Part shown: positions 5,079-31,860 of the stretch, piece after piece
How positions within the stretch are numbered: the stretch's first letter is position 1
How the letters are laid out: the number at the start of each line of letters is the position of its first letter
From: Candidatus Latescibacterota bacterium
Lineage (GTDB): Bacteria; Latescibacterota; UBA2968; UBA8231
Direction of reading: 5' to 3'
Assembly: GCA_965203355.1 (NCBI GenBank)
Contig: OZ241889.1
Location: 2,496,001-2,560,000 of the forward strand
Length of the DNA stretch: 64,000 nucleotides
The notes under the pieces: generated by a model
What the model was told of the DNA's origin: nothing
The model's database searches: none
What the model saw: only the letters and a program-made list of their open reading frames with translations
Translations under genes and position numbers: made by a program

Positions 5079-8000
5079 ATGAGCGACCTACCCTTTAAGG
5101 ACATAATCAGCAAGCATTACACGGTCTTTGATGGAATGGGCGGGATGTACGTGGAAGACCTCTACCAAGACCACCGAGGGTTTCTTTGGGTCGCCACAGC
5201 CGACGGGGGTGTCAGCCGGTTCGACAGTGTGAATTTTGATGCGTTTGGCCCCAAGGATGGGTTGCCCGATCTGACGGTCATGGCCATTGCCGAAGACGCT
5301 GATGAGCGGCTTTTGTTCGGCACGTTTGGCAGCGGGATTGCGGCGTACGACGGGCGCGGCTTTCAGGTGTACACCACCGAACACGGCTTGCCTTCCAACG
5401 AGATCGTGGGCCTGCAAGCCCAGCCGGATGATTCGGTGTTGGTGCTGACCGGCGCGGGGGTGGCGTGGTTTGAACGGGGCCGCTGCATACGGAGCATAAC
5501 CGAGGTGGGCGGCCAACCATTGGGGCGCGTGTACGATATGGCCACGGACGCGACCGGCACTACTTGGCTGGCGACTTGGACTCGCGGCGTCGTCAGCTTG
5601 GATGGGCGGCGCATGGACACCGGCGACAAAGCCCAATGGCCGTGGAAATTCGCGCAAGACGCCGCTGGCCATCTGTGGATTGCCTTTCACTATGCCGGGC
5701 GGGACGCCTTCATTGGCCGCTACGATGCGCGGAGCGAGCAGTTCGCCTTCGTGGAGGTGGGCGAGCGGGCCGAGCGGACTGTGCAGCAGGGGACGCGGCA
5801 TGTGCGGGCGGACGATAGGGGTTGGATATGGATGACGCGCCGGGGCGTCCTCTGCTACGACGGGCAGGTATGGCACCGTTTTTCCACGGCTTTACCAGAC
5901 CTTGACTTTTCCAGTACGCGCCTGGCATACGAGGATCGCGAGGGCAATATTTGGATCGGGCTTTGGGGGGGTGGGCTGATATTTTGCGACCCGGCCAGCC
6001 TCCGCTACTACACCGAAGCCGACGGCCTGCCCGACAACGAGGTTCGCCACTTAGGCGAAGATGCTAAGGGGCGGCTGTGGATCGGTACGATGGACGGTAT
6101 GGCCTGCATGGAAAACGGCCAAATCCGTCCGCTTGATCAGGCTGAAACCGTGTCGGCGCTGATGGTGGACAAAAAGGGGCGGGTCTGGAGCGGCGGAGAC
6201 GCCGGGCGGGTGTACCAATGGGAAGGCCAGACGCCGCACGCGATTGCGGTGGCCGAAAGGGCCCACGCCCAAGCAATCACTGGGCTGTGCGAAGGCGCGC
6301 AAGGGCGTATCTGGGTCGGCACGGCCCGGGGCGGCTTTGGCTGGATAGAGGGCCATCGCTTCACTCCGGTTGGCGCGTGGGACATGGATGAGTGCCATGC
6401 CTTGCTGCAAGACCAAAGCGGAACGTTCTGGATCGGTTGCCGCGCCAGGATACCGGCACTCTATTGGTACGAAAACGGTCAACGCCTCCCGGCGGCGATG
6501 GTCGAAGCGGAGACCATCGCATATGTCAATGTGCTGTGGGAACACCACAACATCGTGTGGGTGGGCACGGCCAAAGGGCTTTTCGCGTACGACGGCTCGT
6601 CCGGGCAGGTGCGCCACTTTACGGTCGATCAATCGGAGCTGTCGGCCAACGGCATCTTGGCGCTGGCAGCGGACCGGCAGGGTCAGGTGTGGATCGGGAC
6701 CAGTGGCGGAGGAGTGCTGCGCTACGATGGCGAGACCTTCCGAAACATCCGCTTAGGACCTTCGGTGCTCGGCAACATCGTCGAGGCCGTTTTGTGCGAC
6801 CGCGATGGTCGGTTGTGGTTTGGGACGCGGGGGGGATTAGTGGCCTACCAGCCGGGCGATGTGCCGCCGGGCTTGGTCATCCGCGAGGTCTTGGCCGGCA
6901 GGCGCATGGTCGCGCCCGAGGCGGTCTCCTGCCCAGAGGACACCCCGGAAATCCGCATTCACTTTCAAGGGATCAGCTTCCGCAGCGGCGCGGCCGAGAT
7001 GCGCTATCGCCATCGCTTGTTGGGCTACGGCCCGGCCGAATCGTGGAGTGCGTTCACCGCTGCCGATACCGCGATGTACCGCGCCTTGCCGGTGGGCGAC
7101 TACCGCTTTGAGGTGCAGACGATAGACCGCGATAATTTGCAGTCCGAGGTGGTTGGCTTGGACCTCCACATCCTCCCGGACCTCCAAACCGAACATCTCC
7201 GCGTCCTTGAAAGGACCCTGCGACCTTCGCCCTGGGTCGTGCCGAGCCGTAGTCCGGCCATGCAGGAGGTGATGCAAGAAGTCGCGCAGGTTGCCGAGAC
7301 CGATATGAATGTGCTGATATTGGGCGAGACCGGCACCGGCAAGGGCATACTGGCGCAGACTATTCACGAAACAAGCAACCGCTCCGGGCAGTCTTTTGTC
7401 CAAGTCAATTGCGGTGCGCTCCCTACCACGCTGATCGAAAGCGAACTGTTCGGCCACGAGAAAGGGTCTTTTACCGGCGCAAACACCCGCCAGCTCGGTC
7501 GCTTTGAACTGGCCAATGGCGGCGCGATCTTTCTCGACGAGATCGGCGATTTATCGCTGGAGTCTCAGCGGGTATTGCTGCACATCTTAGAGGAGAATAC
7601 GCTGACGCGCGTCGGTGGTCAGCAGCCGATCGCGGTGGATGTGCGGGTCATCGCGGCGACCAACCGCGACCTGCGGCAGGCCATTGCGGAGGGTGCATTC
7701 CGCGAAGACCTATTCTACCGCCTGAGCGTCTTCACGATTGAACTGCCGCCGCTGCGACAGCGACAAGAGGACCTATCGGCTTTGGTGACACATTTTGTGA
7801 ATCGGTCTGCCCTAGATCTCAAGCAGCCAGCGCCGCGGCTAGATGCCGAGGCGAGCGCGGCCTTGTATGCGCATGCTTGGCCGGGGAATGTGCGCGCGTT
7901 AGAGCACGTGCTCCAACGCGCTGTCTTGCTGTGCAAGGGCGGTGTGGTGCGGGTGGAGGATTTGGTGCTGTCGTCGGTTGCGCGGCCGGCGGCTGAAGGA

Positions 8001-8201
8001 CCAATCAGGGACGTGGACAAAGCAACGCCGCCGCCCGAAGGGGGGGACGAAAAGCAGCAGATCCTCGCGGCGCTGCAAGCGACCCACTGGCGGGTCTCTG
8101 GGGTGCATGGTGCGGCGGCGTTGTTGGGAATGCACCCGGAGAAACTGCGTTACCGGATGCAGAAATACGGGTTGCGCCGCCCGAAAAAGCCCGGCACCTA
8201 A
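5079..8201 (+). CDS. Sigma54-dependent enhancer-binding protein with N-terminal Reg_prop beta-propeller repeats, a Y_Y_Y domain and a C-terminal Fis-type HTH
   Basis: Repeated DGLP..V..I.ED..G.LWI.T blades and a [22 protein letters not shown] domain. AAA+ motifs: [49 protein letters not shown]-terminal [17 protein letters not shown]. Confidence 0.92.
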
Positions 8202-8221
8202 CGGCCATCGCCGGTTGTGTT

Positions 8222-8280
8222 TTCCACGAAAAACTGTGTTTTTCCACGAAAAATCCGTGTAATTCCACGAAAAAATCGTG
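8222..8280 (+). promoter_or_regulatory. Three direct repeats TTCCACGAAAAA, putative enhancer (UAS)
   Basis: Copies at 8222, 8242 and 8263 (period 20-21 bp). Each contains a CAC(G)-N7/8-(C)GTG pseudo-palindrome. They lie about 120-180 bp upstream of a -24/-12 promoter. Confidence 0.7.
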
Positions 8281-8349
8281 TAGAGCCTTGCATCGCCGGT
8301 GCGTCGGTATCTTTTGCAAAGCTCTGTCCATAATTTTAAGTATCATGTT

Positions 8350-8362
8350 TTTCAAGGTGTTA
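8350..8362 (+). promoter_or_regulatory. IHF-like binding site
   Basis: TTTCAAGGTGTTA has one mismatch to WATCAANNNNTTR. It sits in an AT-rich tract between the UAS repeats and the promoter. Confidence 0.45.
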
Positions 8363-8401
8363 GGTCCATCCTGAAGAATTTTTTTGCATACGGCCTAATT
8401 G

Positions 8402-8418
8402 TTGGCACGGAATATGCT
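8402..8418 (+). promoter_or_regulatory. Sigma54 (-24/-12) promoter
   Basis: TTGGCACGGAATATGCT matches YTGGCACG-N4-TTGCW with one mismatch and correct GG-N10-GC spacing. It is directly downstream of a bEBP gene. Confidence 0.85.
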
Positions 8419-8557
8419 ACTATTCTCGTTGAAGGCGCGGCTGATGCGGCAGAAAGGAGGTGATAGGCACTCATATCGGTCGCTGCTCCACGCGGACTTC
8501 CAGTATTGAAGCGGCCGCCGGTCGCGGACGTATTGGACTTTTCAGGAGGTAAGAACC

Positions 8558-8836
8558 ATGCAGACCTTGCAGGAATTCTTCACGTCGTCGAGCGGTTTGG
8601 CTCCGGCTCGTCAGGGGTTGGGGCTGGGCTGGATCATCAGTGCGCTCACCGGGGTCGCCATACTGCTCGGGGCCAAGGAAGCCGATGCCGCCGAGTGCAG
8701 GTACCGCACTTATCTAGATTGCGGTTGGGACGGTTGGTGTGCTTCAAGGACGAAAGGGAAAGAGCCGATCCGGTGCTGCACATTTACAGAGTACGCTGAC
8801 TGTAGCTTTGATAGAAGTTGCTCCTGCGTAGCATGA
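8558..8836 (+). CDS. Exported cysteine-rich peptide (92 aa; about 48-aa mature part with 8 Cys)
   Basis: Strong RBS AGGAGGT 7 nt before the ATG. Hydrophobic segment WIISALTGVAILLG, then an A-D-A|A signal-peptidase-like site. First gene after the sigma54 promoter. Confidence 0.8.
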   Translation: MQTLQEFFTSSSGLAPARQGLGLGWIISALTGVAILLGAKEADAAECRYRTYLDCGWDGWCASRTKGKEPIRCCTFTEYADCSFDRSCSCVA

Positions 8837-8868
8837 CGGAGATCGCTTCGTAACTAACCCCCTTTCTC

Positions 8869-8952
8869 TACCCAATGGTGCTAGTGGGCTCCCCGTTGAA
8901 TTCAGCCATAGTCGCCGGGTCCTCTCGGTCAACTCATTGGTGCCATTGGGTA
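8869..8952 (+). other. Long RNA stem-loop after the peptide gene (stabiliser or partial terminator)
   Basis: UACCCAAUGGUGCUAGUG (8869-8886) pairs fully with CAUUGGUGCCAUUGGGUA (8935-8952) using four G-U pairs. There is an inner GUUGA/UCAAC stem, and TTTAT follows. Confidence 0.7.
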
Positions 8953-8977
8953 TTTATCGGAGGATAGAGGCCACATC

Positions 8978-11092
8978 ATGTTGGTATTAGCCGTTTGTGT
9001 ATGGGTCGTGCTGTCGGGTCGGGTCGCCGAGGCGATTCGGTGGGATTTCGCCGATGGAACGACGCAAGGGTGGTCGGCCAAAGAAGGTACTATCTGGGGT
9101 GGGCCGCGTGAATTGCACCTGTTTCCGGGCGTGGTCGCAGAGGGTGTGTGGCGGATTGAGACGATGCCCCCCGGCGCCGAGTCTTCCACTCCGAGTGTTG
9201 ATCTCGTTTCTCCGCCGATTGGGTATGATTCGGCCCTGTTCGATCGAGTCTATATCCGCTTCCGCACGGTCCATCCCAGTCCTACGACCGGTGTTTTTTC
9301 GATGACGTGGACCAACGAGCACAACTTCGCTTTGTGGATGTCAGACGACCTTGAAACCAGTTTTGGAATTCTTGCTGAAGACATAACCTATACCACCGAG
9401 TGGCAGGAAGTGGTGTTTGTCTTGGCCGAGCAAGACGATAAGATATGGGAGGGCCTGTTAAAGGATATTCGGCTTTATTTTTATTTTTCGTCCGATTCCG
9501 CTGTGGATCGGGTTGAGTGGCTTGAGATTGACTGGATCGAGTTGACGGGTGTGGAAGAGCAATTACAAGGGGAACTCCCGCCGCCATACGTAGATTACTT
9601 TCGCTTTGCGGCGGGTCTTTTTGCTCCGCCCGTTTTCCATCCAATCGCCTCGGGTATAGGGAACGGCTCTGTCTTTTTAGGCACGCAGGTAGGCGTTGGC
9701 GTATTGACGGACTTGGATGGCGATGGCGATTTAGACCTTTTCGCCCCCTATAATTACCTTCAAAGTGAGTCGGAGTCTGTGCAGCAGCAGAAAAAACTGG
9801 GCTGGCTCATAGCACTCAACGACGGGCAAGGGGGCTTGGAACTAGGGCGCATAGAGGAAGTCGTTACCACCGGGCAGGCGCGTATCGATCCGGCAACCGG
9901 CCGGACGATCGGGACGAATTTAGCGATGGTGGGGGCTGATTTGACGGGCGATGGGCAAGACGAAATCGCGATGTATCAGAATAGTAGTAGTAAGACGGCG
10001 ATAGAGGTTTGGTCCATTGATTCGGAACTCCAAGTTGAGATACTCATGCAGATCGAGGATAGACAGTTCGTGGATGCGGCCGATTGGGATGGCGATGGCC
10101 GCGCTGAATTGTTTGTCGCCGGGGGAGCGAGTAAAATGTTGGAGATATGGGGTTTAGAACAGGGCCTGTGGATCACCGAGAAAGAGGTAGCGGTAGTCCA
10201 AGACCATATCCCCGGCCGAATCGGCGACTTTACTGGTCATGGGGAACTGGAGGTGTTGTGGCTCCCGATTTTAGGGCATGCCCGTACGTGGACTGTGAGT
10301 GCCTTGGACGCGGAGTCTCAGCAAGGCGAGGTGGTTAAGTTCGATGAATATAGGCGGCTGTTAGGCGTGGGCGATTTTGATAGGGATGGACGAGTGGATT
10401 TCCTCACGGAGTTTATACGCGACCAAGTCGAAGGGAGCAAAGGATTGCTCGTGCAGAACGCCGACCCTGCCGAATCGGCGGTGCTGTACGATGAGCGACT
10501 CTTTCGGCTCTCGCCGGTGCTGATGCGGGACCTGAATGCTGATGGGGTCAACGACTGGGTGTTTGTGGGCGGGGATCGGCCTTCGGGCGTTGGGGTCTTC
10601 ATCGAGTGGGGTGGGGGGGTCAAGCCGACCCAAGCGGTGGAGCGGCATCGGTTGGAAGGCCCTGGGACCTATGTGCTTTCTGGGGATATGGATGGCGATG
10701 GCGATCTGGATTTGGTGGTGTTAGATCCGGTTTTGGGTGGGGTGCATGTGCTCAAGAGTTCGCTGGCCGAGCAAGCGACGGCTGTGCAGGCGGCGGCGCT
10801 GGTTCGGCCGGCGCGGTATCGGCTGGGCGACAGTTATCCCAATCCATTTAATCCGGCGGTGGTCATTCCGTTAGATTTGGCGAGGGACGCGCAAGTTGTG
10901 TCGCTGACGGTATATGACGTGCTGGGTCGTCGGGTGCGGCTGGTGTGGGAAGGGTCGCTTGGGGCGGGTCGGCATGGGTTGGTGTGGGATGGCCGCGACG
11001 AGGCTGGTCGTGCGGTGGCGGCGGGGGTGTACATCTATCAGGTCGCAATCGACGGACAAGTAGAAGCAAGCAAGATGACGAAACTGCCGTGA
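8978..11092 (+). CDS. Exported FG-GAP/VCBS-repeat protein with N-terminal beta-sandwich (CBM-like) and C-terminal FlgD-Ig/T9SS-A-like domain
   Basis: Signal peptide ending AEA|IRW. Repeated DLDGDGDLDL / DxxGDG motifs, and YPNPFNP..WDGRDEAG..VAAGVYIY at the C-terminus. Confidence 0.85.
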   Translation: MLVLAVCVWVVLSGRVAEAIRWDFADGTTQGWSAKEGTIWGGPRELHLFPGVVAEGVWRIETMPPGAESSTPSVDLVSPPIGYDSALFDRVYIRFRTVHPSPTTGVFSMTWTNEHNFALWMSDDLETSFGILAEDITYTTEWQEVVFVLAEQDDKIWEGLLKDIRLYFYFSSDSAVDRVEWLEIDWIELTGVEEQLQGELPPPYVDYFRFAAGLFAPPVFHPIASGIGNGSVFLGTQVGVGVLTDLDGDGDLDLFAPYNYLQSESESVQQQKKLGWLIALNDGQGGLELGRIEEVVTTGQARIDPATGRTIGTNLAMVGADLTGDGQDEIAMYQNSSSKTAIEVWSIDSELQVEILMQIEDRQFVDAADWDGDGRAELFVAGGASKMLEIWGLEQGLWITEKEVAVVQDHIPGRIGDFTGHGELEVLWLPILGHARTWTVSALDAESQQGEVVKFDEYRRLLGVGDFDRDGRVDFLTEFIRDQVEGSKGLLVQNADPAESAVLYDERLFRLSPVLMRDLNADGVNDWVFVGGDRPSGVGVFIEWGGGVKPTQAVERHRLEGPGTYVLSGDMDGDGDLDLVVLDPVLGGVHVLKSSLAEQATAVQAAALVRPARYRLGDSYPNPFNPAVVIPLDLARDAQVVSLTVYDVLGRRVRLVWEGSLGAGRHGLVWDGRDEAGRAVAAGVYIYQVAIDGQVEASKMTKLP

Positions 11093-11128
11093 GGATGCGC
11101 TTTTTGACTTGAAGAAGGATAATACGGC

Positions 11129-11650
11129 ATGGGACAGCCTAAGCATCCCTTATACTGGATTTACTCCGGCTTAATTTTGCTATTAATCCCCGTGATCTTC
11201 GTGCTTACGGGCCTTTATGAAAAAAGCCGTCGCCTCCAATGGCCCCTGCCGTCTCTGCCGCCGAAAGAAGTATTGCTGAGCCGACTCGCCGCGCTTGATT
11301 CCACCGCGCGCGATTTCCAGTTAGACGAAGTATATCAGGCTACGCCCGCGCCGCGTTCCGGGGTGCTGTCCGCCTATGGCGTCCTTACTGACGACGAGAT
11401 ATTGGCCTATAGGCTGGTCGTCGTGCGCTACGACATTGCCTGTGCTACCTGCCGCGATTTACTGGCGGGCATCCTCGTTGAGCCGAGCGACGACCGCGTC
11501 GTGGCCGTTTGGCCCTTGAACTCTTGGGAACTGGCCGACGGTCCTTTTGACCCCACGGCATTTTTCACCCAACTAAGCGGAAGGCTCCTCTCTGAACCTT
11601 TGGCCGTAGGCCGAGACATTGATAAGAAGAGGCTGTCGTGTTGCTCTTAG
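11129..11650 (+). CDS. Membrane-anchored CxxC protein resembling an FMN-binding (RnfG/NqrC-like) domain; probably 3'-truncated
   Basis: N-terminal TM helix and a CATC motif. Ends FFTQLSGR..LAVGRDID, exactly where a Dxx[ST]GAT flavinylation motif would be expected. Confidence 0.5.
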   Translation: MGQPKHPLYWIYSGLILLLIPVIFVLTGLYEKSRRLQWPLPSLPPKEVLLSRLAALDSTARDFQLDEVYQATPAPRSGVLSAYGVLTDDEILAYRLVVVRYDIACATCRDLLAGILVEPSDDRVVAVWPLNSWELADGPFDPTAFFTQLSGRLLSEPLAVGRDIDKKRLSCCS

Positions 11651-13821
11651 CCTTTTGCACTGGCTTGCTGCTCTTGCGCGGCCCTGCTGGGGCGATTCGG
11701 TGGGACTTTGACGATGGGACGACGCAAGGCTGGGGCGCGAAGAGGTCAATGAGCTCGGGCGGGGAGCATGCCTTTATTCCGTTGTCTGGGTCTGTGGAAG
11801 TCGGCGTCTGGCGGATTAGTGTCTTCCGCAGAGATGATGCTAGTGGAGCCGCGGCGGAGGTGATTTCTCCTACGCTCAATGTGGATTCGCATCTGTTTGA
11901 CCGGGTGCGGCTTCGCTTTCGCTTGGTGCATGATAGTCCTATCCAAGGCGTCTTATCATTCCGCTGGACCAATCAGCACAATCTCAGGTCCCCGGGTATG
12001 GATCCTCTATGGCCGCCCCCACTTAAGAAACAGTTCGTTCTAAGGGCAAACGGCTTTTGGGGTGCATGGGTCTATACGACCGAATGGCAAGAGTATGAGT
12101 TTTCGTTGATCGACTTCGAGAAAAATCCCTACGGGTACTATCCCTTATGGGAAGGGCTGTTGGATGATATTCGGCTGACATTTGACTTGGAAGATGTGGT
12201 CGATCCACCGGCCGCGCCTCAGGAGCAAGCCTTGGAAATTGATTGGATTGAACTGACCGGCGTGGAAGAAATGTTACAAGGCGAGTTACCGCGTCCGTCG
12301 GTAGCGGCGTTGCCCAATCAAGCGGCTGGCGTGTTTGCGCCGCCGACGTTCTCGCCGGTGGCGCCGGGGTTAGGGTACTTTCGTCTGTTAGGCTACGATC
12401 CGGTGGGTGCTTTGCTCGACTTAGATGCGGATGGCGACTTGGATTTATTCTCGTTTTGGGAGGCTTTAGATCGCGAATGGAAAGGGGGCTGGCTCATGGC
12501 CGGCAACACCGGGTCTGGCGCGTTTGAACTGGCGCGGTCAGAACAGTTGGACCTGTGGGATCGGCGGGTGTGCGTCGGCGATATAACCGGGGATGGTCGG
12601 TCGGAGTTGGTGGTCAGTCTGGGTAGTGCCGAGTGGGCGATCACCGTGTGGTCGGTCGGCGAAGCATTTCAGGTGGCGGCATTGCTGGAGCGGGCGCCGC
12701 GTCGGTTGGTGGATGCGGTCGATTGGGATGGCGATGGGGCTGTGGAAGTGTTTGCCCAAGCGCTGGACGCGCCGTTTTTGGAAGTTTGGGATGTGGTGGA
12801 TGGGCAGTGGGTCTTTACCGAACTGTCGGTGCCGGACTCGGCTTCAGGGTTGGGTTGGGCGCATCAGATCGGCGACTTTACCGGGGATGGTCAGTTGGAG
12901 GTGCTGTGGGGGCCGAAGGAATCGTTTCATTTAGCGGCGTTTGAAGCGGTGAGTTCGTTTCAGGTGGGGCCTTTAGGGTCGGCTGCGGGCGAGGGGCTGC
13001 TCTTTGCGGATGTGGTTCCGTTTCCGCTGCTGGCGGGTCGGTCGGGCGACTTTACTGGCGACGGACAGGTGGATTTGCTGGCGGGCGTGCGCGAGGATGG
13101 GGCTGAGCAACGCAAGGGATTGGCCGTGTGGAGCCACCAGGCCGCTGGCTTGCAGCAAACGGTGCTCTATGGGACGGATTTGTTTTTGCGCTCGTCAGTG
13201 GTGGTTTGCGACTTGGACGGGGATGGGGTGGATGATTGGGTGTTCGTCGGGGGCGATTATGCGTCCGGCTTTGGGGTGTTCGTGGAGTGGGGTGGCGGGT
13301 TGCATCCGGGCAAACGGGTGGAGTGGTATCGGTTGGCTGGGTTGGGTCGTGCGCGGTTGGCGGCTGGGGCTTCCAGCGGGTTGGAAGGCAACGGGGTGTT
13401 GGTGTTGCCGGGGGATGTGGATGGCGATGGCGATTTGGACTTAGTGGTGTTGGATCGCGCGTTGGGGGGTGTGCAGGTGCTCAAGAGTGCGGTGGCCGAG
13501 CAAGCGACGGCTGTGCAGGCTTTGCCGCTGGTTCGGCCGGTGCGGCATCGGCTGGGTGCTAGTTATCCCAATCCGTTCAATCCGGCGGTGGTCATTCCGT
13601 TAGACTTAGCGAGGGACGCACTGGCCGTGTCGTTGACGGTATATGACGTGTTGGGTCGTCGGGTGCGGCGGGTGTGGGCTGGGTCGCTTGGGGCGGGTCG
13701 GCATGAGTTGGTGTGGGATGGCCGCGACGCGGCCGGTCGCACGGTGGCGGCGGGGGTGTATATCTATCAGGTCGCAATTGATGGGCAAGTACAAGCAAGC
13801 AAGATGACGAAGCTGCCGTGA
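11638..13821 (+). CDS. Paralogous exported FG-GAP/VCBS-repeat protein with C-terminal FlgD-Ig/T9SS-A-like domain
   Basis: Same architecture as 8978-11092 (AIRWDFxDGTTQGWxAK, YTTEWQE, LEIDWIELTGVEE). The 3' ~400 nt are visibly near-identical to that gene. Confidence 0.85.
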   Translation: MLLLAFCTGLLLLRGPAGAIRWDFDDGTTQGWGAKRSMSSGGEHAFIPLSGSVEVGVWRISVFRRDDASGAAAEVISPTLNVDSHLFDRVRLRFRLVHDSPIQGVLSFRWTNQHNLRSPGMDPLWPPPLKKQFVLRANGFWGAWVYTTEWQEYEFSLIDFEKNPYGYYPLWEGLLDDIRLTFDLEDVVDPPAAPQEQALEIDWIELTGVEEMLQGELPRPSVAALPNQAAGVFAPPTFSPVAPGLGYFRLLGYDPVGALLDLDADGDLDLFSFWEALDREWKGGWLMAGNTGSGAFELARSEQLDLWDRRVCVGDITGDGRSELVVSLGSAEWAITVWSVGEAFQVAALLERAPRRLVDAVDWDGDGAVEVFAQALDAPFLEVWDVVDGQWVFTELSVPDSASGLGWAHQIGDFTGDGQLEVLWGPKESFHLAAFEAVSSFQVGPLGSAAGEGLLFADVVPFPLLAGRSGDFTGDGQVDLLAGVREDGAEQRKGLAVWSHQAAGLQQTVLYGTDLFLRSSVVVCDLDGDGVDDWVFVGGDYASGFGVFVEWGGGLHPGKRVEWYRLAGLGRARLAAGASSGLEGNGVLVLPGDVDGDGDLDLVVLDRALGGVQVLKSAVAEQATAVQALPLVRPVRHRLGASYPNPFNPAVVIPLDLARDALAVSLTVYDVLGRRVRRVWAGSLGAGRHELVWDGRDAAGRTVAAGVYIYQVAIDGQVQASKMTKLP

Positions 13822-13869
13822 GAGGACAACCTCAGCATCCATGTGGATTGAGAATCGGAGTATATCAGC

Positions 13870-14172
13870 ATGATACGCATTGACACCTTGAATCGCTGCG
13901 GCGACACCTTAACCGTCCAACTCGCAGGGTATATCTATAAGGAGGAGTTCGCCATCCTGTATGATTTCCTAAAATCGCAGGCCGAGGAGGGCGTAACGGA
14001 GGTGTGCATCGTGGCCAACGAAATGCGAAGCCTCAACTCATTGCTCCAGCGCGACGCGGACCGCTTGGCGCAACTGGGTCTGAGGTTGCGCTTTCAACAA
14101 CTGAACGATTCCATAAAGTACATATTAGAATACTGGGGGAAGGAGGCTTGGATAGATGATGAAGATGAATAA
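13870..14172 (+). CDS. STAS-like small protein
   Basis: 100 aa with a beta-alpha pattern like anti-sigma antagonists (LTVQLAGYI..., SIKYILEYWG). Motif is weak. Confidence 0.5.
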   Translation: MIRIDTLNRCGDTLTVQLAGYIYKEEFAILYDFLKSQAEEGVTEVCIVANEMRSLNSLLQRDADRLAQLGLRLRFQQLNDSIKYILEYWGKEAWIDDEDE

Positions 14173-15814
14173 GATGTGTGCTTTAGTCGCGATAATCGTG
14201 CTGTGCGGCCAGTCGGTGTGGGCGGGCGAGTGGGTGCAAGCGGGAACGGATGATTTCGCGGCGGGCACTTTTGCCGGTACGCAGATCGACCACTCGGGGC
14301 AGGTGTCGCTGACCTCCTTTCGCGGGGTGAATTTGGCGTTGGATGCGGTAGCTGCGTCCGGGCCGAACACCTTGAGTGGTCGCCGCAGCGTCACCGATGG
14401 CAACCCCGACACCGAGTGGCGCTTTGACAACGCAGTCGAAGTGTTGGGCAAGTGGATTCGCATTGACTTGGGCGGCGACCGCGGCGTCAGCCAAGTGCGC
14501 CTGCTGCCGGGCAAGACGGTGGTCCAACGGCCGCAGTTTTTCGTCAAAGGCTATCGCCTCGAAGTGGCGCGCGAAGCCACGCCCGACGATTGGGTCCTGG
14601 TGGCGCAACAGGCCGAAAACACCCGCCCAACGGTCGATACGTCGGCGGATTCGACGTGGATCGAGACCAAGGCCAACGGGGAGGTGTTGCCCGTGTTGGG
14701 CCGCTTTGTGCGCCTGCGCCTGACGCGGGAGGACCCGCCCAACTGGGTTTCCATCGGCGAGGTGGAAGTGTTTGGCGAGGGCTTTCGCGCCGAAGGTGCG
14801 TTTGAGTCGGCTGTGTTCGATGCCGGGCAGCCGATCAACCTAGGGCGGGTGTGGTTTGCTGGCGATAGGCCGCCGGGCACGGTTTTGCAGGTGCAGTTCC
14901 GCACCTCGGCCGATGGGGAGACGTGGCCCGAATGGCACCGGGTGCCGGCGTGGAATTTGACCGCAGTCGGCGCGGGCGTGGCCCTGACCGAGCCGGAGCC
15001 AGCGCGGTTTGTGCAATATCGGGCGGTGATGGAAACGCGTGACCCGTTGCGGACGCCGCGGCTGGCGCAGGTGGTGGTGGCCTTTGGCGAGGAGCTCTTT
15101 GCACAGGCGGTGGCCGGCAGCATTGCGCCGCCGCGTCCGGTGCTGGGTGCGGAGACCGAGTTTGTCTATACCTTTGACGTGGAAATCGGCCCCAGTGATT
15201 TAGGGTTTGACCGAGTGCGTATTGGCTTGCCCGGGTCGGTGCGACAAGTGCGGTTTGACGGGGCGGTGCTGCCGGCGGATGGGTATGAGGCCGCGTGGGA
15301 CGATGCGGGCATCCACTTGGTGTTGGGAGCCGAGCACCACGTGCGTCGGTCGGGGCGGCTCGAAGTGGAGTTTGCGGCCGTGTTGCTGCGGCCGACGCTG
15401 GCGGTGCGGGCGGCCGTGGCGTTGGGCGCTAGCGCGGATTGGCAGTACGTGCGGCCGGTGACGGACGCGGCGTGGACGTTGGTCGGCGAAGGGGTGGTCG
15501 CTCGCGCCTTGCCGCGCGCTGGCGTGTTGGTGCGGCCCAATCCCTTTAACGCGGCGACTGGCCCGACCCAAATTCAGATCGACTTGGCCAAGGTGCAGCA
15601 CCCGCAGGCCTTGACGGTGGCCCTATACGACTTGGCGGGCCGGAAGCAACGGTTGCTGTGGGACGGGTCGGCCGCGGCTGGGCGCAAGCGCTTGGCCTGG
15701 GATGGCCGCGACAACAGCGGGCGGCGGGTCGCGCCCGGGCATTATCTGCTGCGCGTTGAAATCGACGCGGACCGAGCGGATGTGTGGACCGGGTTGGTCG
15801 GGTTGGTGTACTGA
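14156..15814 (+). CDS. Exported discoidin/F5-8C-like domain protein with C-terminal FlgD-Ig domain
   Basis: Signal peptide; VTDGNPDTEW..WIRIDLG..VSIGEVEVFG discoidin motifs; PNPFN..WDGRDNSGRRVAPGHY. The start may be a few codons later. Confidence 0.8.
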   Translation: MMKMNKMCALVAIIVLCGQSVWAGEWVQAGTDDFAAGTFAGTQIDHSGQVSLTSFRGVNLALDAVAASGPNTLSGRRSVTDGNPDTEWRFDNAVEVLGKWIRIDLGGDRGVSQVRLLPGKTVVQRPQFFVKGYRLEVAREATPDDWVLVAQQAENTRPTVDTSADSTWIETKANGEVLPVLGRFVRLRLTREDPPNWVSIGEVEVFGEGFRAEGAFESAVFDAGQPINLGRVWFAGDRPPGTVLQVQFRTSADGETWPEWHRVPAWNLTAVGAGVALTEPEPARFVQYRAVMETRDPLRTPRLAQVVVAFGEELFAQAVAGSIAPPRPVLGAETEFVYTFDVEIGPSDLGFDRVRIGLPGSVRQVRFDGAVLPADGYEAAWDDAGIHLVLGAEHHVRRSGRLEVEFAAVLLRPTLAVRAAVALGASADWQYVRPVTDAAWTLVGEGVVARALPRAGVLVRPNPFNAATGPTQIQIDLAKVQHPQALTVALYDLAGRKQRLLWDGSAAAGRKRLAWDGRDNSGRRVAPGHYLLRVEIDADRADVWTGLVGLVY

Positions 15815-29845: not shown

Positions 29846-30706
29846 ATGGAGACGTTTTCGAGCGGACAACACACCATCTACCACGGCGATGCAGTCTGTG
29901 TTCTGGAGTCGACTCGGATTCCAGAGGCTAGCATTGACTTGATATTTGCCGATCCACCGTACAATATCGGCAAGAACTTCAATGGGAGGCGAGACAAATG
30001 GCCCAGCGAAAAGGCGTACTGCGCATGGGTATCCCGCTGGCTTGATCTCTGTGTCCGTAAGCTCAAGCCGACTGGCAGCCTGTACTTAATGTGTGCGACA
30101 CAGTGTTTTGCGCCGTTTGATTTGCTCTTGAGCCAACGCCTAGCCATTCTTTCGCGGATTGTCTGGCACTACGACAGCTCCGGAGTTCAAGCAAAGCGAT
30201 ACTTTGGCTCTCTTTGGGAGCCGATATTTCACTGCGTGAAGGATCCTAAGCATTATACTTTTAATGCAGACGACATCCTCGTTGAGGCCAAAACTGGGGC
30301 GCAGCGCAAACTAATTGACTATCGCAAATCGGTTCCTACCCAATACAAGACTAAAAAGGTGCCCGGCAATGCTTGGTACTTTCCACGAGTACGCTATCGG
30401 ATGTCTGAGTACGAAGAACATCCGACGCAAAAGCCGATTGTACTACTAGAGCGCATTATTGCCGCTAGTTCAAACCCTGGAGATGTCATCCTCGATCCAT
30501 TCGCCGGAACATTCACTTCGGCTCGCGCTGCCGCCAATCTCAACCGGAGAAGTACGAGTATTGAGATTGACGAGGACTATCTAAAGATTGGACTTAGACG
30601 GCTCGGATTGGCTACCGAGTACAAGGGAGGTCGTTTACATCAGCCGCTAAAATCCTACGAAGACAGGTATCCCAACGAGTCCCAAAACCTTACACTTTTC
30701 GAGTAA
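29846..30706 (+). CDS. Beta-class N6-adenine DNA methyltransferase (YhdJ/CcrM-like)
   Basis: DPPY precedes HPTQKP and DPFAGTFTS. YDSSGVQAK, KVPGN and FPRVRYRM segments are YhdJ-like. Confidence 0.9.
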   Translation: METFSSGQHTIYHGDAVCVLESTRIPEASIDLIFADPPYNIGKNFNGRRDKWPSEKAYCAWVSRWLDLCVRKLKPTGSLYLMCATQCFAPFDLLLSQRLAILSRIVWHYDSSGVQAKRYFGSLWEPIFHCVKDPKHYTFNADDILVEAKTGAQRKLIDYRKSVPTQYKTKKVPGNAWYFPRVRYRMSEYEEHPTQKPIVLLERIIAASSNPGDVILDPFAGTFTSARAAANLNRRSTSIEIDEDYLKIGLRRLGLATEYKGGRLHQPLKSYEDRYPNESQNLTLFE

Positions 30707-31860
30707 TGAATCATTCCTTTACTGCTAAAATAATCGAGGAAGTAGGGCGTGAATTTAACGGGCTTGGGAGGACTTTCTTTGAGTTAAGTCCACTTCTTCA
30801 GTATATCAACAAAAAGACAAGATCCGCTAACCGAGGTTCAAAAGCACGAAGTAGTTTTGCCAACCTTTATGCTCTTTACGTCCTGATTGAAGACTACGTG
30901 AACAATGGGTATCTCGAAAAGGGCGACTATGCAGAGTATGAGGGGGCCGACTTTACCCCATTATTGCGCCGGATGCGCGAACTTCCCTTCGGGGCGCGGT
31001 TGCAGAATCACGCGCTCAATAATCGTGCAAATGACGATTTTCACAAGTATTTTCCTGAAGATGATCGACGCCCAATACTTCGAGACGTTTCGAGTCGGAA
31101 ATATTGGATCAATGAGGCATTACTGACTGTCTTTATAGGAGAGCGTAAATACAGCCTTGCCCAAGTAGTACTGCGAGTCATTGACTTTTACGTTGAAACG
31201 AAGCGCACGTCGTTTGCTCAGTTTATTGAAGACTGTGAACGACTGCAGAAAGTAAATGAAAAAGAGAATGATGAAGCAGCAGAATTTATTAGATCGCTGT
31301 TGTCGCCAAAGCGAGATGCTAGACTATTTGAAATAGCGAGTTACGCGATCCTAAAAGCTCATTTTTCGGCAGAAATCGTCTTTATTGGAAAGACTCGCGA
31401 TACTATCGAAAAAGAAGCATTGGAGTTGTTCAAGACAGGACGAACTAATGCTAATGATGGCGGTATTGATTTTGTCATGAGACCGTTGGGTAGGTTTTTT
31501 CAAGTTACAGAAACTCTCGATATAAAAAAATACTTTTTGGACATAGACAAAATAGAGAGGTATCCAATCTCGTTTGTGATTAAGACTACGCTTGAACTCG
31601 ATGAGATTCGCTCGCGCTTAGAAGATGGTGCTAAAGAGCAATATGGAGTGCGTGAGATTGTGCTGCGATATATGGCTGCTATTGAGGAGGTTTTTAACAG
31701 CCCACGATTGATCGCTATTTTGGACGGTTTGGTGCGTCAAGGCCGCGCCACCGAGGTGCTAGACGAAATAATCCGTTGGAGCAAAGTGGAGTTCAATATC
31801 GAAGACGATCTAGATTCTTCTGAGAGTGTCGCTGACGAAGACGAGGATACCAACGATTGA
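30706..31860 (+). CDS. Putative type II restriction endonuclease
   Basis: Coupled to the MTase (TAATG) and AT-rich. GRTNANDGGIDF..FFQV is a nuclease-like core. Confidence 0.75.
   Translation: MNHSFTAKIIEEVGREFNGLGRTFFELSPLLQYINKKTRSANRGSKARSSFANLYALYVLIEDYVNNGYLEKGDYAEYEGADFTPLLRRMRELPFGARLQNHALNNRANDDFHKYFPEDDRRPILRDVSSRKYWINEALLTVFIGERKYSLAQVVLRVIDFYVETKRTSFAQFIEDCERLQKVNEKENDEAAEFIRSLLSPKRDARLFEIASYAILKAHFSAEIVFIGKTRDTIEKEALELFKTGRTNANDGGIDFVMRPLGRFFQVTETLDIKKYFLDIDKIERYPISFVIKTTLELDEIRSRLEDGAKEQYGVREIVLRYMAAIEEVFNSPRLIAILDGLVRQGRATEVLDEIIRWSKVEFNIEDDLDSSESVADEDEDTND

Follow-up and report, generated by a model that had tools for sequence, protein, structure and literature searches.

Class II bacteriocins, and sublancin with BdbA/BdbB, are leader-directed ribosomal peptides in which disulfides are the sole modification. 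The gene family described here shares with them a conserved leader, a variable core and the clustering of the precursor with a dedicated peptidase and thiol oxidoreductases. The second close reference is given by the Flp/Tad prepilins with their peptidases TadV/CpaA. A24 peptidases cut after the Gly of the leader and have two catalytic Asp residues, as stated in the parts of PMC4471445 and PMC3244431 used here. The family leader follows the Flp/Tad pattern L-x-x-F-hydrophobic-x-[DS]-E-x-G in equal length and register, and relatives of the locus have, at family level, a linked gene for an A24 peptidase that keeps both Asp. Within the window, i.e., the whole stretch of 64,000 nt analyzed here, we consider it probable that the gene listed in Table 1 encodes the precursor of an exported disulfide-rich miniprotein, made by a leader-directed pathway that combines the leader of a Flp pilin with a prepilin peptidase but forms no pilus.

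The reading frame is real, i.e., its translation gives the 92 aa and 8 Cys of the initial annotation, and a strong ribosome site (AGGAGG, 8544-8549) lies 8 nt 5' of the ATG. We found 138 homologues of the precursor, or 76 cluster representatives at 50% clustering, and the named precursor loci belong to Candidatus Latescibacterota. Matches are present in 35 of 167 Latescibacterota genomes, with up to 20 per genome; the metagenome contig search returned 2 loci, and in a sponge-metagenome run the locus has a relative that is about 90-95% identical. Among 49 aligned homologues, the identity to the query is 0.83 for the leader, 0.32 for the core and 0.21 for the non-Cys positions of the core. The same division is visible in pN/pS, which is 0.14 for the leader (aa 1-44) and 1.27 for the core (8 close genes, 28 non-independent pairs); the gene is under selection as a protein. 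Cores hold 6-10 Cys with 44 kinds of Cys spacing among 114 sequences. No meaningful Pfam or NCBIfam match was obtained for 52 family members, and we found no description of the precursor family in the literature (supplements and subscription papers aside); the main text of PMC12993501 has no occurrence of pilin, prepilin or FG-GAP, and that of PMC12426817 none of Latescibacter or prepilin. The precursor is a real gene and a member of an undescribed system. This is a large unnamed Latescibacterota family with a shared pilin-like leader and a fast-changing Cys core. Single members deviate from this layout: P0148 joins the N-terminus of a CxxC/FMN-binding protein to a Cys core, and P0058 and P0005 have short stretches duplicated or inserted in frame within the core. 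We read these as signs of frequent recombination in precursor arrays.

Table 1. Positions of the features of the precursor locus within the window.
Feature	Position	Strand	Basis or remark
sigma54 enhancer-binding activator (Reg_prop propeller + Y_Y_Y + sigma54 AAA + Fis HTH)	5079..8201	+	Pfam
three 14-nt near-palindromic repeats, spacing 20 and 21 nt	8220..8274	.	similar repeats in 5 related promoters
AT-rich element	8350..8362	+	conserved block in 6/6 aligned promoters
sigma54 -24/-12 promoter TGGCAC-N6-TGC	8403..8417	+	GG and GC invariant in 6/6 aligned upstream regions
precursor ORF	8558-8836	+	92 aa and 8 Cys in the translation
aa 1-13, Flp-prepilin-type leader ending in Gly13, predicted A24 cleavage site	8558..8596	+	leader clusters
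aa 14-44, class I-like signal peptide (basic n-region, hydrophobic helix, A-D-A end)	8597..8689	+	model and pattern
aa 45-92, mature core	8690..8833	+	48 aa, 8 Cys, predicted beta-alpha-beta-beta, net charge 0
repeat units in the core	8696-8740 and 8777-8821	+	gap-free self-alignment
secreted FG-GAP repeat protein with C-terminal FlgD-Ig/T9SS-type sorting domain	8978..11092	+	Pfam
membrane-anchored CxxC/FMN-binding protein, truncated	11129..11650	+	homology stops at 11623, before the G-A-T flavinylation motif
second FG-GAP + sorting-domain protein	11638..13821	+	directly abuts the truncated CxxC/FMN gene

The internal duplication first noticed in the peptide is likewise real. Residues 47-61 and 74-88 align without gaps and are identical at 6/15 positions (3 Cys, Tyr, 2 Asp) with two further aromatic positions kept, and the underlying DNA has diverged to 19/45 identical letters. 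The best off-diagonal self-score of the peptide (42) is equaled by none of 5000 full shuffles and by 7 of 5000 Cys-fixed shuffles. The proposed pattern search with the repeat consensus gave a divided answer. Using the 113 full-length sequences out of 119 listed homologues, the strict motif is found in none of them, not even as a single copy, and the doubled C-x7-C-x5-C spacing in one. Self-similarity reaches p<=0.05 in 11 of the 113 (about 6 are expected), the top five being close relatives. What does recur is a weaker pattern: among the 37 homologues with all eight Cys positions, [DE]-C-[SGN] is present at Cys II in 25, at Cys VI in 23 and at both in 17, compared to 0-6 at each of the remaining six Cys, and the consensus of the 37 reads Y-x-D-C-S-aromatic twice. 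This enrichment at Cys II and Cys VI implies a weak two-fold echo common to the eight-Cys subfamily. The D-C-S echo is thus a trait of one 8-Cys subfamily and may go back to an old duplication or to packing symmetry. The internal repeat is a genuine but secondary feature of the peptide.

Seven basic and seven acidic residues give the core a net charge of zero, which makes it a poor fit to a cationic antimicrobial. In the AlphaFold model of the precursor, the core (pLDDT 88-90) forms a strand at 50-57, a helix at 59-64 and strands at 71-78 and 84-91; for the core alone, the best model reaches pLDDT 84 and the other four 57-67, i.e., 1/5 is above 70. Both models show one compact domain in which repeat 1 is a strand then a helix and repeat 2 a strand then a hairpin. 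Foldseek returned no match at E<=0.001, and none of the best Z values of the VIA fold search (3.1, 4.0 and 3.7) is above background; the match with Z 4.0 is an unrelated chain (rmsd 4.0, 39 aligned). Laterosporulin was rejected as a fold match (Z 3.5, rmsd 4.1, not above background). Inhibitor cystine knot, Tyr-lock and CS-alpha-beta folds are candidates to which the core was compared by fold and by a disulfide connectivity drawn from few variants. A sequence search of solved structures gave nothing meaningful for the core, the A24 peptidase or the FMN protein, and the ESM Atlas provides two unnamed clusters (0.86 and 0.82) as leads only. A missing fold match does not show a new fold.

The number of Cys is even in 108 of 114 sequences, and Cys positions tend to be lost in pairs. 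In an alignment of 115 sequences, of which 11 rows are misaligned and uninformative, C47 and C82 (I+VI) are jointly missing in 2 clean cases, C55 and C73 (II+IV) in 1, and C74 and C88 (V+VII) in 2, with 2 more having an extra Cys. An exception is one homologue in which C73 alone is missing; in addition, a 32-member subfamily keeps C73 with C55 absent. The connectivity is therefore not family-wide. Based on these few variants, the disulfides of the precursor are most likely C47-C82, C55-C73, C74-C88 and C61-C90, where the last pair is assigned because the other three leave C61 and C90 over. C47-C82 and C55-C73 would tie the D-C-S strands in antiparallel orientation at both ends, with an approximately two-fold axis. 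The suggested two-fold pseudo-symmetry hence holds only in part: the D-C-S strands are seemingly paired antiparallel and cross-linked, but both structure models continue them differently, into a helix or a hairpin. The suggested exported four-disulfide miniprotein is supported, namely by the even Cys numbers, the paired losses and the thiol-oxidoreductase genes linked in relatives.

The initial annotation offered a second reading, i.e., a two-core RiPP precursor exported by a degenerate Tat signal and modified in trans. A statistically real repeat agrees with it, as do the 17 of 120 close homologues that carry RRG in the leader; the other 103 carry RQG, and the strict repeat motif is absent from all 113 full-length homologues. 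Since C47-C82 and C55-C73 cross between the halves of what both models present as one compact domain, they argue against two separate cores. Repeated cores conserved in the family with protease sites between them, as expected of multi-core RiPPs, were not observed, and no RiPP modifying enzyme stands beside the family core in the two related loci scanned with Pfam. Within the window, too, radical SAM, YcaO, LanM and MNIO genes are absent from the 46 ORFs scanned with Pfam (a set without smaller and alternative-frame ORFs), as had been noted. The neighbors that are conserved are a peptidase and thiol enzymes. For the leader, we used 57 clusters (<70% identity) from 271 matches. The precursor has RQ where only 3 of the 57 have RR, and no Tat model is among the NCBIfam matches. 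With RR this rare the Tat reading fails; the conserved element is instead of Flp-prepilin type and ends in Gly13. We regard the two-core, Tat-exported precursor as highly improbable.

Gly13 is the most conserved residue of the leader (56/57 clusters), followed by Phe at -7 (49/57) and Leu at -10 (32/57). A second candidate site, R-x-G20 before L, is less uniform, with Gly20 kept in 48/57. The precursor model has a helix at 27-40, and [AVTSG]-x-A, a lenient pattern, precedes the core after a polar linker in 56/57 clusters. For comparison, we used 11 mutually related Flp pilins from Hydrogenedentota, 3 of which are over the Pfam cut-off. Scored with the Gly13 profile of the family, all 11 Flp leaders are within the top 1.3% of 14,406 Gly-ending 8-mers; the Gly20 profile places them at 4-58%. 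A profile-profile comparison of family and Flp pilins aligns 35 columns in register without gaps, including Gly+7/Leu+8, with a score of 19.7 (maximum of 13.2 in 120 shuffles). This match is weak, since its probability is 26% and thioredoxin N-termini score 20.3 against the family as a control. The Flp motif Glu+5/Tyr+6, found in 11/11 Flp pilins, is replaced by Arg18 and Gln19 in the precursor, and position +5 is R in 37, Q in 6, H in 4 and E in 3 of the 57 clusters. PF04964 (Flp pilin) has no match in 52 family members. As in Flp/type IVc prepilins, the hydrophilic leader ends in a conserved Gly, but no hydrophobic tract directly follows Gly13, since six mixed residues including Pro and Arg come first; it would directly follow the rival site Gly20. 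Taken together, the leader reads as a Flp-prepilin-like element stacked on an ordinary signal peptide, with cleavage predicted.

These data also bear on a minimal pilin or membrane-anchored display, in which the A24 peptidase cuts at Gly13 or Gly20, the helix is kept and the Cys domain forms a variable head in the membrane or a polymer. The shared 35 columns with Gly+7/Leu+8 would suit such a protein, and class III substrates normally retain the helix, according to the part of PMC4471445 used here. It is quite improbable in our view, given that the family has Arg/Gln at the place of Glu+5/Tyr+6, that polar linker and A-x-A are so widespread among the leader clusters and that no Tad or type IV pilin marker was found where tested. 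PF04964 has no match in 167 Latescibacterota genomes (some may be incomplete), CpaB is over the cut-off in 1 of the 167, which lacks the precursor, and the type IV pilin motif is absent from 5 of 5 genomes tested; the controls were positive in all three cases. This leaves the peptidase without an evident pilin substrate and the precursor without an evident pilus.

In accordance with a leader-directed pathway, the precursor is linked to an A24 peptidase in relatives. The peptidase is found in 31 of 167 Latescibacterota genomes, 30 of which are shared with the precursor-positive set. The 31st (G081) has a precursor 160 nt behind the peptidase, such that all 31 carry one. G091, G094, G123, G136 and G142 are precursor-positive without a peptidase match, where genomes may be incomplete. 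Kinship among the genomes raises both the co-occurrence counts and the Fisher value, and of the 19 peptidase loci, 18 were chosen already knowing that precursor and peptidase matches are close together. Both catalytic Asp are invariant in 11/11 aligned peptidases of the family, which are 350-385 aa long and exceed the PF01478 cut-off in the cluster of G001 and G003; the nearest NCBIfam model is FlaK (E 1e-4, far below cut-off). G001, G003 and others have a second peptidase locus elsewhere. This peptidase was not found in 121 Hydrogenedentota genomes, a search that had no positive control, and had no match in the plasmid search. L005 was dismissed as a related locus, its match being due to chance.

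Beside the peptidase, the G001/G003 cluster encodes two TlpA/ResA-like thioredoxins and a membrane-anchored CxxC/FMN_bind protein, further a TPR protein, a glycosyltransferase-transglutaminase fusion and a GT2. In the distant loci listed, the recurring part consists of peptidase, thioredoxins, precursor and often the FMN/CxxC gene. The latter is present in 27 of 167 genomes, 24 of them peptidase-positive. Its FMN_bind domain is weak in relatives (E 0.03 and 0.006), the CxxC is invariant in 9/9 and the G-A-T motif is present in 8/8 intact copies. This motif matches the ApbE target motif given in the part of PMC8238504 used here, and ApbE is encoded in 5 of 5 genomes tested. As a separate observation, the fusion proteins (825-832 aa; L007:11555-14032 and L008:9105-11603) combine a GT-B-like glycosyltransferase with a transglutaminase-like part and occur with the TPR protein and GT2; they could modify the peptides or their partners.

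The same genes allow for a metal-binding or redox peptide, i.e., the ResA/TlpA pair and the flavin-CxxC protein would keep the exported Cys reduced and the core would bind a metal or buffer redox. The thioredoxins' closest NCBIfam models are ResA and MauD (below cut-off), Asp stands before or after Cys in both repeats, and flavinylated proteins serve extracytosolic electron transfer as described in the same part of PMC8238504. Even Cys numbers and pairwise loss speak against reduced thiols, and the many spacings, like the core pN/pS of about 1 or more, are easier to reconcile with diversification driven by targets than with a fixed metal site. We therefore consider a metal or redox role improbable and retain the disulfide-rich miniprotein as the favored product.

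Directly upstream of the precursor lies the gene of a sigma54 activator, and the same activator gene precedes the precursor in seven related loci (L001, L002, L004, L020, L022, L026, L028). Between the two genes, the three near-palindromic repeats are probable binding sites of the activator, and the AT-rich element resembles an IHF site. The sigma54 promoter pattern has 1 match in the window with 0.99 expected by chance and is thus not significant alone; no sigma70 promoter was found. Other metagenome contigs hold a diverged second copy of the promoter region (window 8160-8555) with other flanks, and G001 has repeated copies of this promoter. The RNA fold of 8430-8980 is no better than that of shuffles (z -0.57). 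A long hairpin that separates the peptide gene from the FG-GAP gene (8869-8955) is predicted in both minimum-energy and centroid folds.

Downstream, the precursor is followed by an FG-GAP gene that is duplicated along with the precursor in a relative; in G001, an array of five intact precursor + FG-GAP cassettes is found. The predicted complex of core and FG-GAP protein scores 0.00, which gives no verdict either way. Among 61 distinct precursors in the loci examined, 9 carry a fused FlgD-Ig/T9SS-type C-terminal domain. The remaining 52 are free, and next to them downstream is an FG-GAP gene (24), another gene (20), another precursor (4) or an edge (4). L002:10577-12482, L004:10577-12480 and L006:16379-16981 encode the family leader and one to three Cys modules fused to such a domain. 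In another lineage (L044, L051, L056, L059, L060), precursors are flanked by secreted paralogues of about 300 aa instead of FG-GAP genes. The G001 array also contains a frameshifted precursor (L003:10493-10802) directly 5' of a second-type FG-GAP gene. Further downstream in the window, a 100-aa ORF without Pfam match (13870-14172) that resembles a STAS domain is followed by genes for a CTD protein, a barrel-like protein and a TPR protein; in a low-GC region (29846-31860), a DNA methylase gene is accompanied by an ORF of 384 aa that has no Pfam match, probably a restriction-modification pair.

Compared to G001, the locus has lost about 16 kb with the peptidase, thioredoxin, TPR and glycosyltransferase genes. 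Homology to G001 stops at 11623 and resumes at 11625, the corresponding G001 points being 15.9 kb apart. Contigs from two runs of one study, which may be the source sample, span 8443-14300 without difference; in a second study, one run also reaches across the joint, but with too short a sequence on one side to be counted. Within the 64-kb window, neither an A24 peptidase nor a thioredoxin is matched, i.e., peptidase and family context are invisible from the window because their genes are deleted from the locus. Unless peptidase and thioredoxins are supplied in trans, this precursor copy is an orphan. For the orphan case, the family-level reading would be right and compatible, and the peptide would be exported unprocessed, misfolded or silent. 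The join, which also cuts off the flavinylation motif, and the missing peptidase and thioredoxin point that way. On the other hand, the ORF and its ribosome site are intact, as are the promoter and the activator, and G001, G003 and others have their second peptidase locus elsewhere. No A24 protein was tied to the source assembly among the homologue and cluster matches listed (15/28 members for the likeliest cluster). We deem an orphan copy unlikely, though deserving to be kept in mind, and continue with the leader-directed pathway.

The data show the gene family, the selection on the leader, its Flp-leader likeness and the gene linkage, from which we infer every biochemical step. Transcription would be driven by the adjoining sigma54 activator. 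The precursor would be inserted by Sec via its hydrophobic helix with the 13-aa leader staying in the cytoplasm, where a dedicated A24 aspartyl peptidase is expected to recognize the leader and cut after Gly13. The leader would probably serve as the docking tag by which the precursor is kept at the folding module, i.e., two TlpA/ResA-type thioredoxins and the flavinylated CxxC protein, which could form or reshuffle the four disulfides. TlpA/ResA proteins are usually reductants, which fits isomerization but also reduced metal-binding thiols. Signal peptidase I would then cut near A44 and free the 48-aa core as one domain, in which the repeat may correspond to two cross-linked antiparallel strands. 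In the weakest step, the core would be a diversifying binder of targets outside the cell, a role suggested by the fusions of this module to a surface-sorting domain; the neighboring FG-GAP protein may carry, display or bind it.

Going further, a bacterial 'conotoxin-like' library is conceivable, if doubtful. Here, a pilus-derived leader and its peptidase would serve as a folding checkpoint before the signal peptide, with a new flavin-CxxC disulfide relay, and hypervariable binders, mass-produced with up to 20 matches in one genome and free, sorting-domain-fused or carried by cognate FG-GAP propellers, would act on the host or neighboring microbes; the 8-Cys fold would stem from an internal D-C-S strand duplication. 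If the favored pathway is true, bacteria use an A24 prepilin-type peptidase for non-pilin peptides whose class III and class I signals are stacked, together with an unstudied flavin-plus-CxxC redox protein. It would be a new route to disulfide-rich natural products overlooked by standard family libraries and, in an uncultured phylum, a source of new mini-protein scaffolds by the dozen; two to five genes would suffice for a direct test in E. coli.

Compared with Flp/Tad systems, the family is without Glu+5/Tyr+6 and without Tad genes found, and adds a signal-peptidase-I-like site and a Cys-rich core; its peptidase is nearer to FlaK than to TadV/CpaA by NCBIfam, at the E-value given above. In contrast to class II bacteriocins and sublancin, its core module has no C39/ABC exporter and no double-glycine leader; it has instead an A24 peptidase and a flavin-CxxC protein, and its cores are also sorting-domain-fused. 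Conotoxins and mussel MgCRP-I, in the partial accounts used here, share the conserved pre-region, the hypervariable Cys-framework core and the multigene arrays, but the family is bacterial and unrelated in sequence, i.e., the likeness is one of architecture only. The portion of PMC11339948 used here describes Recifin A, a Tyr-lock peptide of Axinella sp., whose C-x5-C-x9-CC...C-x2-C resembles Cys II-V, VII and VIII here and whose I-III bond matches the C55-C73 pair proposed above; it has three bonds, II-V and IV-VI are opposite to our pairing, and it is not among the sequence or fold matches of the core. ApbE-flavinylated redox systems of the DsbD/DUF3570 type share the [S/T]GA[S/T] motif and thioredoxin-like neighbors, whereas here CxxC and motif are in one membrane-anchored protein beside peptidase and precursors; 'Latescibacter' is not mentioned in the part of PMC8238504 that describes them. 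The HXS antiphage system also has an exported precursor with N-terminal processing, but depends on two radical SAM enzymes and on His-X-Ser repeats, neither of which is present here (PMC13128918, in the part used). By its sequence features, the family does not belong to the Flp pilins (no Glu/Tyr), the Tat substrates or the multi-core RiPPs. In its workings, the system is like the leader-directed pathways of ribosomal peptides, with parts borrowed from Flp/TadV.
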